Below are positions 4,306 through 19,514 of a stretch of DNA of 19,514 nt, one piece after another. The stretch spans positions 1 through 19,514 of the IMG/VR virus record IMGVR_UViG_2585427793_000004; one strand, written 5' to 3'. Position 1 is the stretch's first letter. Each line of letters opens with the position of its first letter. This DNA comes from a virus. Its lineage: Duplodnaviria > Heunggongvirae > Uroviricota > Caudoviricetes. The translations under genes were made by a program, and so were the position numbers. Below the pieces are notes generated by a model, which saw nothing but the letters and a program-made list of their open reading frames with translations, did not search any database and was not told the DNA's origin.

Positions 4306-4575
4306 TTAATGTGTTGCGGCATCCGGGTTGCACCGGAATAACTCGCCTTCAACTTCCAGCCCGCGTTCCCTGGCGGATTCCAGCAACGCCCGGGTCGCCT
4401 TCTCAATAATTTCAGACGCCATACTCTTGATAATGCCTGCCATCAGATCATGCGGCCCGACCTGTCCCTCCGGGGATTGCTCTTCCAGCCGCACATTCAT
4501 ATTGATATAAAAATGGTTATTTCTTTGCATCTCAGCACTTTCTGCGCAATTAAATTCGAAGATGACCTTTGCCAT
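4306..4575 (-). CDS. Hypothetical early protein, 89 aa
   Basis: Track ORF 4306-4629 trimmed to the ATG at 4575 with GAGGA RBS (MAKVIFEFNCAESAEMQRNNHFYI...). Confidence 0.5.
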   Translation of the reverse strand: MAKVIFEFNCAESAEMQRNNHFYINMNVRLEEQSPEGQVGPHDLMAGIIKSMASEIIEKATRALLESARERGLEVEGELFRCNPDAATH

Positions 4576-4607
4576 TTTGTTATTCCTCACAAATAAAAAG
4601 TTCACTA

Positions 4608-4835
4608 TTAACGCCAGATAATCTGGCAACCATTAAGACGGGCTGTCCATACAGAACGGGCTACCCCGGACTTATGCTCCATAATTCTGACCGCGTTTTT
4701 TACCAGCTCCACCGGTGGGTATGTGATTTCAAGAATCGGACGAGCCACGCCGAGATATGATTCATTTACATGACTCCCGCGCGCCTGTAACCAGTTCTGC
4801 GCATCCGTCGCCATTTTGATATTCCGTGACATCAT
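4608..4835 (-). CDS. Small early protein, 75 aa, in the position of Mu kil
   Basis: ATG at 4835 with AAGGAG RBS, 14 nt after the B stop ([20 protein letters not shown]...). Assignment is positional only: in Mu the gene immediately after B is kil. Confidence 0.5.
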
Positions 4836-17299: not shown

Positions 17300-17482
17300 T
17301 CAGTTCTGCAGACACTGCCGAACACCGTCGACAATTTCACAGACCTGAGACGCGGTATCGAAAAGCTGGCGCGCCTTATCCAGGCTGACGCACCCCACCA
17401 ATAAAAAAGGCACCAGTATCGCTACCAGTGCCCGTTTCACCGCCGTTCGCGGCATTCTGTGTGTCCAGTGTTTTCGCGCCAT
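17300..17482 (-). CDS. Small putative lipoprotein, 60 aa
   Basis: MARKHWTHRMPRTAVKRALVAILVPFLLVGCVSLDK...: hydrophobic signal segment ending in a lipobox-like LLVGC; mature part ~30 aa with 3 Cys. Not proline-rich, so not a typical o-spanin. Confidence 0.45.
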   Translation of the reverse strand: MARKHWTHRMPRTAVKRALVAILVPFLLVGCVSLDKARQLFDTASQVCEIVDGVRQCLQN

Positions 17483-17729: not shown

Positions 17730-18107
17730 TTATCGCTTCAGCTGAAAGTGAGGTCCGTCTTTCAGCGTTTTCCAGTCCCCGCCCCATTCGATAGCGATCC
17801 CCAGCTCTGCGGCAGCCTGCTTAAATGCCTGTGCGATTTTCTCGTACAGAGGCCACTCCCATGACACCTGACTGCCAATGTAGGCCACAACATCCACCGC
17901 ATCACCGGTCAGGTGGCGGCTGTTCATGGTCTGGCTTTTCCCTTCCGCAACCAGCTGTTTCTGGCGATACTTACTGCGCAGGCCTTCCGTAATACCGAAA
18001 TCAACCTCCGTCAGCTCCAGCGCACGGCGAACTACAGCAACCAGCTGTGGTTTGACACCCTCCAGATTTTTTTCACTGCGACGGCTGAATCTGAATTTAC
18101 CCGGCAT
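17730..18107 (-). CDS. Endolysin, peptidase M15-like (L-alanyl-D-glutamate peptidase type)
   Basis: Track ORF starts at a GTG (18113); the ATG at 18107 follows a GAGG RBS (MPGKFRFSRRSEKNLEG...). Zinc-site-like pattern SRHLTGDAVD ... DGPHFQ (H-x-x-x-D ... H) typical of M15 phage endolysins. Confidence 0.75.
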   Translation of the reverse strand: MPGKFRFSRRSEKNLEGVKPQLVAVVRRALELTEVDFGITEGLRSKYRQKQLVAEGKSQTMNSRHLTGDAVDVVAYIGSQVSWEWPLYEKIAQAFKQAAAELGIAIEWGGDWKTLKDGPHFQLKR

Positions 18108-18109
18108 AT

Positions 18110-18385
18110 TCACCTCAACAATGGAAAGATTTTTGTGACGTTCCCGCGTGCGCGTATCACCAGCACGCAGAACAGCAGATTAAAAAACACTTCCAGCCAG
18201 CCCGTTGCTAACGGGCGACCACACAGATAGCTGAGGGGCGCAAAGGCATACAGCAGCATCAGCAGCCAGGCCAGCCATGACACCAGCGGTTTATGTCTGG
18301 AATCACGGCGACGATAAAAAAAGAGCGTCAGCACGATAACCGTGCATAACGCCACATTCAGCAATCCGGGAAGGTTACTTAACAT
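18110..18385 (-). CDS. Lysis-cassette membrane protein (holin or antiholin candidate), 91 aa
   Basis: Track ORF 18110-18439 trimmed to the ATG at 18385 with GGAGG RBS (MLSNLPGLLNVALCTVIVLTLFFYRRRDSRHKPLVSWLAWLLMLLYAF...). At least two hydrophobic helices; immediately upstream of the endolysin. Confidence 0.55.
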   Translation of the reverse strand: MLSNLPGLLNVALCTVIVLTLFFYRRRDSRHKPLVSWLAWLLMLLYAFAPLSYLCGRPLATGWLEVFFNLLFCVLVIRARGNVTKIFPLLR

Positions 18386-18767
18386 TGCCGCCTCCTCCAC
18401 CCCGCAGGCGGGAGAACACACCGGACACCAGCGATGCAATATCCTGCTGGTGGATGAACGAGAGAATCTTCACCGACACCACCGAGACCAGCACCGCGCA
18501 AAGCGCATCTGCTGATGTACCGTCATACCCTGTTTTTGATGCAATCCAGGCTGACAGCACACGCGCTCCCAGCACGCCGACAATAAACGACACCAGAAAA
18601 TGTGCCACCACGCGCCAGACTGAAAGTGACTGTGGCATCGTTGCCACAAATAACGCCCCGGCGAACGCGCCAAACACAATCCCGAAATCCATTCCGGTAA
18701 ACAGCCCGAATACCGTCGCGCCACCCAGCGCCGCAGCCGTGCCGGAACCGGATAAGGGTTCAGACAT
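18375..18767 (-). CDS. Holin-like membrane protein, 130 aa
   Basis: ATG at 18767 with strong AGGAGG RBS; Gly/Ala-rich hydrophobic helices (GLFTGMDFGIVFGAFAGALFVA..., VAHFLVSFIVGVLGARVL...); first gene of the lysis cluster. Confidence 0.6.
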   Translation of the reverse strand: MSEPLSGSGTAAALGGATVFGLFTGMDFGIVFGAFAGALFVATMPQSLSVWRVVAHFLVSFIVGVLGARVLSAWIASKTGYDGTSADALCAVLVSVVSVKILSFIHQQDIASLVSGVFSRLRGGGGGNVK

Positions 18768-18777
18768 ACTTCCTCCT

Positions 18778-18805
18778 GAAAATAAAAAAGGGCCACCAGC
18801 GACCC
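18778..18805 (-). terminator. Weak terminator-like hairpin immediately upstream of the holin RBS
   Basis: Minus-strand RNA GGGUCGCUGGUGGCCC (6-bp stem with two G-U pairs) followed by UUUUUUAUUUU, abutting the holin RBS. Confidence 0.35.
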
Positions 18806-18823
18806 GTAAAAAAACACCCCGTC

Positions 18824-18852
18824 AAAGGCATCCGCAGATGCCTTTTGTGTGA
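18824..18852 (+). terminator. Hairpin with U-tract, canonical in the + orientation
   Basis: AAAGGCATC-cgca-GATGCCTTT followed by TGTGTGATGTTATT on the + strand; on the - strand the same stem is followed by GACGGGGUGUUUUUUU. Confidence 0.4.
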
Positions 18853-18854
18853 TG

Positions 18855-19007
18855 TTATTCAGATTTACGCAGTAAAGGCCGGAGCACGACCAGCGCCATC
18901 ACCACCAGCACACCATCTGCCAGCACCGACATCAGTCGTCCGGTGAAATCAACCACCACTACCAGAAACAACAGGATGACAGCCAGCACAAGGCGCGCAC
19001 TTTTCAC
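18855..19007 (-). CDS. Small hydrophobic peptide, 50 aa from a GTG start (25 aa from the internal ATG)
   Basis: GTG at 19007 preceded by GGAG, overlapping the TerB-like stop. (V)KSARLVLAVILLFLVVVVDFTGRLMSVLADGVLVVMALVVLRPLLRKSE is two hydrophobic helices. Not in the track (under 60 aa). Coding status uncertain. Confidence 0.3.
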   Translation of the reverse strand: MKSARLVLAVILLFLVVVVDFTGRLMSVLADGVLVVMALVVLRPLLRKSE

Positions 19008-19429
19008 AGGTACTGCTCCAGCGGCAACTGCAGCGCCTGCGCAATTTTCTTCAGTTGCGCTTCTTCTTCCTGAGCGATACCGTCCTGGTCAGCGATATCC
19101 AGACACAGGCACAGCACATTAACTGCATCATCAGTACCGGCAACATCAGCCAGCTGACGAAGAGCTTCGGCATTGGCAGAACGCGGCGACGCTTCATAAC
19201 GGGCGCGGATATTTGCACTCATTTGTGCAATCTCACCGGAGAACGGCGCAAAGGCAGGAAGTGCTGCAATGGTTTTTTCCAGTACCGCGATTTCTTTCGC
19301 GTCACAGGTGCCGTCAGCGTATGCAATGGAGTACGCGCCCCAGACGGTCGCCTCCACTGCGTCACGGTTCTCCATCTTCTTCACTTCGGTAATGGCCTTG
19401 CGGGTTTTCTTTTTGAAAATACCAAACAT
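19004..19429 (-). CDS. TerB-like domain protein (tellurite-resistance TerB / DjlA-N-like fold), 141 aa
   Basis: ATG at 19429 with AAAAGGAAAAG RBS. Amphipathic helical protein with acidic C-terminal half (LCLCLDIADQDGIAQEEEAQLKKIAQ) that resembles TerB-family proteins; family call is from pattern memory only. Confidence 0.55.
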   Translation of the reverse strand: MFGIFKKKTRKAITEVKKMENRDAVEATVWGAYSIAYADGTCDAKEIAVLEKTIAALPAFAPFSGEIAQMSANIRARYEASPRSANAEALRQLADVAGTDDAVNVLCLCLDIADQDGIAQEEEAQLKKIAQALQLPLEQYL

Positions 19430-19514
19430 CGTGACTTTTCCTTTTAGTGGGTGAGCCTGCGCCCGGGGGTGACCAGCCCACAGAGAAAGTCACACTGACC
19501 ATCCCGTAAGCTCA

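Follow-up and report, generated by a model that had tools for sequence, protein, structure and literature searches.

In a 19,514-nucleotide (nt) stretch of tailed-phage DNA, virus record IMGVR_UViG_2585427793_000004 of IMG/VR (hereafter the window), two overlapping genes on the minus strand between positions 18,855 and 19,429 encode a TerB-like protein and a small hydrophobic peptide. Judged by its sequence, this gene pair is the already catalogued tciA-tciB accessory cassette of phage P1, in an allele that RefSeq already holds; it is not a discovery, and any function given to it is putative. The explanation we favor, to which we give a probability of roughly 55%, is that the pair is a mobile cassette, expressed late and gated by a leader RNA, that forms a membrane-associated TerB module. 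The conserved, structured leader in front of tciA is the only element that appears undescribed, and it makes a candidate new class of cis-regulatory RNA in phages.

By BLASTP, TciA of the window is 86% identical to TciA of P1 and TciB is 47% identical to its P1 counterpart, and in a phage collection the tciA gene matched tciA of P1 and P1 relatives. phrog_632 matches TciA over residues 1-141 (E 5e-64) and phrog_1470 ('TciB-like') matches residues 2-50 of TciB (E 9e-23), both families being filed under 'moron, auxiliary metabolic gene and host takeover'. Positions 18300-19514 (1215 bp) are 100% identical to Escherichia coli chromosomes, where RefSeq names the products 'tellurite resistance TerB family protein' and 'DUF3927 family protein'. 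Matches occurred in 567 of 5426 complete E. coli genomes, with 171 matching places on plasmids. A sequence entered as 'Actinobacillus phage vB_Apl-pPE4' (PP818812.1) is 91% identical to the prophage region over 1.2 kb, and 98.5% in the leader, an unexpected host attribution. What travels under the name of tellurite resistance is, as we see it, an inherited label on a widespread, uncharacterised two-gene phage cassette.

The two genes keep company across loci. A tblastn match to tciB lay directly 3' of the TerB gene in 82 of 82 closely related loci, two of which (L019 and L038) have a truncated copy. When one genome per species was searched with a DUF3927 alignment, TerB stood directly upstream in 15 of the 17 loci found, including those of a second TerB clade only ~42% identical; the remaining two (L085 and L099) gave partial peptide matches, to residues 8-50 and 8-42, and are truncated remnants. 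Both TerB and DUF3927 motifs were present in 90 of 95 leader-positive loci with sufficient downstream sequence, the small open reading frame (ORF) being disrupted in the other five. The tciB start varies among loci between a GTGA overlap and a TAATG or TGATG overlap, with the frame preserved. In the window the two genes overlap by 4 nt, the GTG start lying within the ...CTGTGA that ends tciA, and tciA has a Shine-Dalgarno sequence, AAGGA, at 9-13 nt 5' of its ATG.

An earlier note on this DNA, written from its letters alone, had described both ORFs correctly, with the stop of the 141-amino-acid ORF overlapping the GTG start of the 50-amino-acid one; they lie on the minus strand. Most of its interpretation is not borne out, but its suggestion that translation of the larger protein is coupled to that of a small hydrophobic membrane peptide is supported by the overlapping stop and start and by a junction that is kept across loci. 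One-nt frameshifts at this overlap yield TerB-DUF3927 fusion ORFs of 170-197 amino acids in both clades (P0180, P0264 and P0322). When the natural fusion P0264 was aligned to the two families in MAFFT, the peptides landed on the N-terminal ADG motif of TerB, and the alignment was dropped.

Profile and structure checks agree that the larger protein is TerB-like, as had been proposed. TciA scores 32.2 bits against Pfam TerB (PF05099; cutoff, 24.4), and because a sequence search of the PDB returned chance-level matches only, its fold was tested by structure prediction. The AlphaFold model, made with 64 homologues from two clades, has six helices in a TerB-like all-alpha fold, with a mean predicted local distance difference test score (pLDDT) of 89.4 and a predicted template modeling score of 0.84; residues 1-12 fall below a pLDDT of 50, and the block 11-20 averages 68. 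The duplicated A-D-G...E motif is a TerB signature, and TciA carries an acidic motif of this kind in both halves, A38-D39-G40...E46 and D116-G117...E122. Across the 64 sequences E46 and G117 never vary, and conservation is at least 90% at D39, G40, D116 and E122. The net charge of TciA is +5 over residues 1-20 and -10 over the remainder. A match to the NCBIfam DjlA model was weak (E 0.03, far under its cutoff).

The small ORF also has the marks of a gene. TciB scores 49.7 bits against Pfam DUF3927, with a cutoff of 25. Its ratio of nonsynonymous to synonymous differences (pN/pS, Nei-Gojobori) is 0.46, lower than in any of the other five frames. Alone this number is weak, one reverse frame giving 0.50; tciA, at 0.07, is under far tighter constraint. 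D20, F21, T22, S27, D31 and G32 are invariant in TciB while their codons differ synonymously, and this variation under invariant residues, stronger evidence than pN/pS, indicates that the small ORF is a real gene. Both ends of the peptide are basic.

In the earlier note the pair was thought to stand in for the antiterminator gene Q. In an E. coli chromosome with an identical stretch, however, the order is RusA, antitermination protein, terminator-like hairpin, a 714-bp hypothetical gene, tRNA-Ile, tRNA-Arg, a second terminator-like hairpin and TerB, so that Q lies ~2.2 kb upstream of the pair. The window, which stops 85 nt 5' of TerB, merely ends before reaching it. The interval from Q and the transfer RNA (tRNA) genes to the lysis genes is a classical lambdoid cargo slot, and the idea that the pair is cargo and no part of the core machinery of the phage holds up, the pair filling here the slot that stx2e fills in phiP27.

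The phiP27 comparison shows a cargo swap at nucleotide resolution. In that phage stxA2e and stxB2e have tRNA-Ile and tRNA-Arg on one side and, on the other, the lysis, HNH and terminase genes known from the window, with both holins and the endolysin. Between stxB2e and the holin, phiP27 (L083) positions 4510-4652 were compared with window positions 18855-18950; homology runs through the hairpins into the 3' ~95 nt of tciB. The tciB remnant has a 1-nt deletion that shifts the frame, and homology breaks exactly at the D-F-T codons; the stx2e genes therefore replaced tciA and the first ~19 codons of tciB.

Other loci place the same cassette in very different surroundings. At most loci the pair has Q on one side and lysis genes on the other, but the lysis cassettes are unrelated, one example being an S-like holin with lysozyme and Rz. 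Further settings are the C1-repressed ban operon of P1, an early recT region and a P2-like region. Strictly virulent phages carry it too: it lies among the early genes of the N4-like Salmonella phage FSL SP-076, and just past tRNA-Trp and tRNA-Cys in the jumbo Erwinia phages pEa_SNUABM_6, Caitlin and Asesino. The phages concerned, temperate and virulent, infect E. coli, Klebsiella, Salmonella and Erwinia, a breadth across hosts and lifestyles that points to a general benefit during infection. Genes for tRNAs adjoin the cassette repeatedly (L001 [P1], L002, L092, L093, L100 and L104-L107), and their identities differ: Asn/Thr and Ile in P1, Ile/Arg in this phage type, Asn/Thr/Gly in JLK-2012, Trp/Cys in the jumbo phages and Ser, Arg or Met/Arg/Arg elsewhere. 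This adjacency may reflect shared transcription and processing, or merely shared cargo regions.

The cassette is dispensable and often lost or swapped for other cargo. In P1, tciA, tciB and tciC are nonessential by CRISPR interference (PMC10695390), and a P1-like variable region with the tci operon has been lost in about half of one subgroup (PMC9603915). Decay forms in our own loci (L172, L180, L209 and L227) include a leader joined to unrelated sequence, a TerB gene that breaks off after its second codon and a clean deletion that runs from leader to tciB 3' end and spares the hairpins and holin.

Expression in the lambdoid setting is probably late. No sigma-70-like promoter was found between the tRNA genes and TerB in the E. 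coli prophage with the identical stretch, and terminator-like hairpins stand on both sides of the pair. Together these observations suggest transcription mainly by Q-modified polymerase and late in infection, rather than expression in the lysogen.

The leader RNA in front of tciA is ~132-135 nt long (the full element can be seen, for example, at L002 10131-10267, minus strand), of which the window holds only 19514..19430. Our covariance model, R1, scored 80.6 bits on window positions 19427-19514 (minus strand), a 5'-truncated match to model positions 46-132. The leader is conserved far better than the proteins, with 84% mean column identity between the two TerB clades (alignment A4), and it is recognizable in the virulent jumbo Erwinia phages as well. 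An exact-pattern scan of viral contigs gave 120 loci, two of them chance matches and five with too little downstream sequence; TerB followed at a fixed offset after 109 of the 113 true leaders that could be judged, the other four being deletion remnants. It is thus TerB, rather than the phage backbone, that the leader travels with. Scanning with the covariance model gave no leader in P1 (L001 and L098), FSL SP-076, Cyrano or two further contexts.

Several helices recur across the aligned leaders. Hairpin 1 is 100% paired, with changes on both sides in four of its five pairs. For helix A, pairing reaches 99% and two pairs are compensatory; its versions are CCACAGAG:CUCUGUGG, CCGCAGA:UCUGCGG, CCGUAGAG:CUCUACGG and CCACAA:UUGUGG. 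A long helix of CCUUUCAGGGGUGAG with CUCACCCACUAAAAGG covers the Shine-Dalgarno sequence; it is 97% paired, and one of its pairs is compensatory. Hairpin B, an inner one known in several sequence versions, is 86% paired in the alignment tested and holds the 3' strand of helix A in its loop. Controls in which the partner strand was slid gave 37-55% pairing, clearly below the proposed structure; the shuffle control ignores the relatedness of the sequences. RNAalifold proposed a nested structure that left the complementary strands CCACAGAG and CTCTGTGG unpaired, and both pairings were then tested. Because helix A crosses the Shine-Dalgarno helix and hairpin B, the leader would be either pseudoknotted or a switch between two folds, and we keep helix A and hairpin B both as candidates.

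Rfam 15 gave no leader match at E values up to 1 (L002 9900-11700 and L081 3800-6500) and no match at gathering level in the window, and the sequence was not found printed in the literature searched. Two subthreshold Rfam matches to STnc100 (L002 10266-10411 and L081 3831-3875; 18.6 and 23.3 bits, with a gathering score of 47) fall on the tRNA-Arg/terminator region just 5' of the leader. Two other identities were considered and rejected. A small ORF was set aside when its overlapping ATG frame proved not to be kept in the second clade, where it either stops after nine codons or lacks the ATG, and Pas small RNAs are described beside the holin/lysozyme operon, not in front of TerB.

A diverged second type of leader, scoring 32-36 bits, lies 3' of the Rz/Rz1 genes in five loci (L093 7930-8046, L087 4931-5046, L088 7011-7123, L090 6043-6159 and L081 6311-6426), none of them in the window. 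Every copy runs up to the ATG of a small ORF, not the same ORF in any two, and keeps the same architecture with other helix sequences; a terminator just upstream is suggested by the sequence. Copies in E. coli genomes have no RNA annotation, and in two records they overlap the annotated end of a tail-tip-fiber or DUF1983 gene. At its widest, our interpretation would make the leader an undescribed family of pseudoknotted, Shine-Dalgarno-sequestering cis-regulatory RNAs, riboswitch- or thermosensor-like, that gate cargo ('moron') genes in Enterobacterales phages (tciA in lambdoid and virulent jumbo phages and, for the second type, other small cargo genes past Rz, with one site overlapping the annotated end of a tail-fiber gene), with the TciA-TciB complex as a membrane-protection or counterdefense module that keeps the infected cell energized against depolarizing attacks. 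We regard this wider proposal as tentative and, taken whole, rather unlikely.

We propose the following model for the cassette, which in this phage type runs from leader RNA through tciA and tciB to two hairpins, the second terminator-like. Here it would be transcribed mainly by Q-modified RNA polymerase within the late transcript, and in P1 upon loss of C1 repression. The leader would gate translation of tciA by pairing CCUUU...GGUGAG with CUCACC...AAAGG over the Shine-Dalgarno site, and tciB would be translated through its coupling to tciA. TciB would insert in the inner membrane so that its two basic ends face the cytoplasm, and there it would recruit or hold TciA, by its acidic TerB domain, against the membrane. 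The 'membrane anchor plus TerB domain' layout of DjlA and TerB-TerC would in this way be divided between two genes. The complex may then help the membrane of the infected cell to tolerate or sense ion or depolarization stress, or the insults of competitors (colicins, superinfecting phages or membrane-attacking defenses), until lysis.

That TciB holds TciA at the membrane is suggested by the basic ends of TciB, by the basic N terminus and acidic body of TciA and by the membrane links of TerB elsewhere. TerB domains in TerB-TerC, DjlA and BnzA are membrane-associated or fused to a membrane anchor (literature cited in bioRxiv 10.1101/2022.05.11.491447 and 10.1101/2025.09.30.679545). That virulent phages have retained the pair points to a benefit during lytic growth. 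Both the anchoring and the membrane-stress benefit are what we infer from these observations, and we offer the stress step as a hypothesis.

A number of results weigh against this model. AlphaFold, given the peptide alone, drew TciB as one continuous helix over residues 2-48, with no hairpin. The earlier note had spoken of two helices, a view that the two hydropathy peaks at residues 6-19 and 29-42 favor and this prediction opposes. The Pfam TerB match on TciA is limited to residues 11-57 (profile positions 60-106). Among the contexts examined there was no ter gene, the neighbors being tRNA genes, Q, holins and endolysin, with no TerC, TerD or TerZ nearby, so that the 'tellurite resistance' annotation is a name only. 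The fusion ORFs P0180, P0264 and P0322 may be real alleles or sequencing or assembly errors, and it is as errors that they would count here. For the leader, the single-sequence minimum-free-energy fold is modestly better than shuffled (z = -1.98), and the covariation, drawn from few independent lineages with high sequence conservation, is suggestive and not proof. No experimental study of TciA or TciB was found in the literature searched. The earlier note had set its cargo idea against a conserved phage gene of known function: the pair is conserved and named, as tciA/tciB, but the name brings no known function.

Among other explanations, the one that survives best, though we consider it unlikely, is what the annotation implies: lysogenic conversion, in which the pair gives the lysogen tellurite or colicin resistance or superinfection exclusion. 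Its appeal lies in the ter cluster of the IncHI2 plasmid R478, to which Whelan et al. in 1995 reportedly traced resistance to tellurite and to pore-forming colicins as well as phage inhibition. The label comes from homology only, however, virulent phages carry the pair, and no promoter-like site for expression in a lysogen was found. Resistance from the ter operon requires TerC, TerD and TerE besides TerB, and none of those three is present here.

The earlier note likened the pair to a two-gene toxin/antitoxin or abortive-infection cargo; on that reading the peptide would be a membrane-depolarizing toxin checked by the TerB protein and the pair would protect lysogens or stabilize the prophage. 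An upstream gene coupled to a small hydrophobic peptide has that look, and TerB domains do occur in defense systems (Bunzi, Shango and Dionysus), in Dionysus alongside a membrane protein that forms pores. The decay pattern is also what a toxic peptide would leave: TerB persists with a disrupted peptide in L019, L038 and five more loci from the leader scan, and the copies of the peptide that lack TerB (L085 and L099) are only partial. The same pattern fits an accessory anchor equally well, however, and frequent deletion and replacement give no sign of addiction. PADLOC returned no family for either protein at E values up to 1, and no toxin/antitoxin family was found in Pfam or NCBIfam. Lambdoid copies lie behind Q and terminators, and the P1 ban operon is C1-repressed, so both should be silent in lysogens; in virulent N4-like and jumbo phages, lysogen protection or addiction makes no sense. 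With no positive support for it, we judge this second explanation improbable. The distribution argues against lysogen-protecting abortive-infection or addiction cargo, and a lytic-phase, membrane-associated TerB module fits better.

The least probable alternative, an antiholin-like regulator of lysis timing in which peptide and TerB partner modulate triggering of the adjacent holin, would suit the size and basic ends of the peptide, which recall small holins and antiholins, and the place of the pair directly 5' of holins here and in most lambdoid loci, probably cotranscribed with them, but that adjacency follows from the slot, the neighboring cassettes are unrelated (holin_8 with M15 here, S-like holin with lysozyme elsewhere), lysis genes are missing beside the pair in the P1, N4-like, jumbo, P2-like and recT-type contexts, phiP27 has the same holins without the pair, a terminator-like hairpin separates pair from holin, and Pfam assigns the peptide to no holin family, only to DUF3927.

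Coordinates of the cassette and its neighbors are collected in Table 1. The pair stands immediately upstream of the lysis cluster, as the earlier note had it, with two holin genes and an M15 endolysin gene next on the same strand. The hairpin before the holin gene also occurs in phiP27, where a G-C pair takes the place of a G-U pair in the stem. Farther on, 3' of the endolysin gene, a 60-amino-acid ORF at 17300-17482 (minus strand) has a lipobox-like LLVGC after a basic N terminus; it had no Pfam match and may encode a spanin-type lipoprotein.

Table 1. Features of the tciA-tciB cassette and adjoining genes, in window coordinates
Feature	Coordinates	Strand	Remarks
tciA	19004..19429	minus	ATG start; 141-amino-acid cytoplasmic TerB-fold protein (predicted); residues 1-20 basic, body acidic, two ADG...E motifs
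tciB	18855..19007	minus	GTG start; 50-amino-acid DUF3927 membrane peptide (predicted); core D20-F-T...S27...D31-G32.L34-V35...P44
Leader RNA, 3' 85 nt	19430..19514	minus	In front of tciA; 5' part beyond window end; covariance model R1
Leader helix A, 3' strand	19485..19478	minus	
Leader hairpin B, both strands	19501..19494 and 19477..19470	minus	
Shine-Dalgarno-sequestering helix, 3' strand	19455..19440	minus	
Shine-Dalgarno GGA	19441..19439	minus	
Perfect 9-bp hairpin, AAAGGCAUC-UGCG-GAUGCCUUU	18824..18845	minus	9 nt past tciB stop; read from sequence; kept in phiP27
Terminator-like hairpin, GGGTCGCTGGTGGCCC then TTTTTTATTTT (T-run)	18779..18805	minus	Directly 5' of holin ribosome-binding site; consensus scan
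Phage_holin_8	18375..18767	minus	Pfam
Phage_holin_3_7	18110..18439	minus	Pfam
M15 peptidase (endolysin)	17730..18113	minus	Pfam
HNH endonuclease, then terminase/portal/capsid genes	beyond M15 peptidase gene		

Among known systems, the closest is the cassette of P1, which has the same gene order, an overlapping stop and start, adjacent tRNA genes and a dispensable, accessory status. The two differ at the junction, which is GTG/GTGA here and ATG/TGATG in P1, and in the host element, a lambdoid phiP27-like prophage with its Q-to-lysis slot in contrast to the C1-controlled ban operon. The copy in the window has the structured leader, whereas the covariance model found none in P1 (L001 and L098). 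P1 also has a third gene, tciC, of 35 amino acids, which tblastn detected only in the P1-type loci L001 and L098 and not here, so tciC is not part of the conserved core. In phiP27 the slot is exactly this one, with the same flanks (tRNA-Ile/tRNA-Arg on one side and holin_8/holin_3_7/M15, HNH and terminase on the other), and its cargo is a toxin instead of tciA-tciB.

In common with TciA, the TerB encoded by ter operons (terZABCDE, found in O157 islands of E. coli and on IncHI2 plasmids; PF05099) has the all-helical fold and the duplicated acidic motif. In contrast, TciA is only remotely similar to it in sequence, is paired with a 50-amino-acid peptide and has no TerC, TerD, TerZ, TerA or TerE nearby. 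Operon TerB is reported to associate with the inner membrane (Alekhina et al. 2011, as summarized in a citing paper). DjlA offers a likeness to the proposed TciA-TciB layout in working rather than in family: DjlA has a J domain, and a transmembrane segment of its own keeps its TerB-type domain on the cytoplasmic side of the inner membrane, whereas TciA has no J domain and its anchor would be a separate product.

Finally, the anti-phage systems Bunzi, Shango and Dionysus (DinB, a TerB protein, with DinC, a pore-forming membrane protein) combine TerB with membrane proteins, as the tci pair does, and a 'membrane surveillance' role has been proposed for TerB in such systems (bioRxiv 10.1101/2022.05.11.491447 and 10.1101/2025.09.30.679545). 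Those systems are host-encoded and multigene, with helicase/ATPase, MAEBL or four-transmembrane pore-forming partners, whereas the tci pair is encoded by phages, virulent ones included. The presence of TerB in anti-phage systems makes a TerB protein borne by phages a reasonable experimental target.

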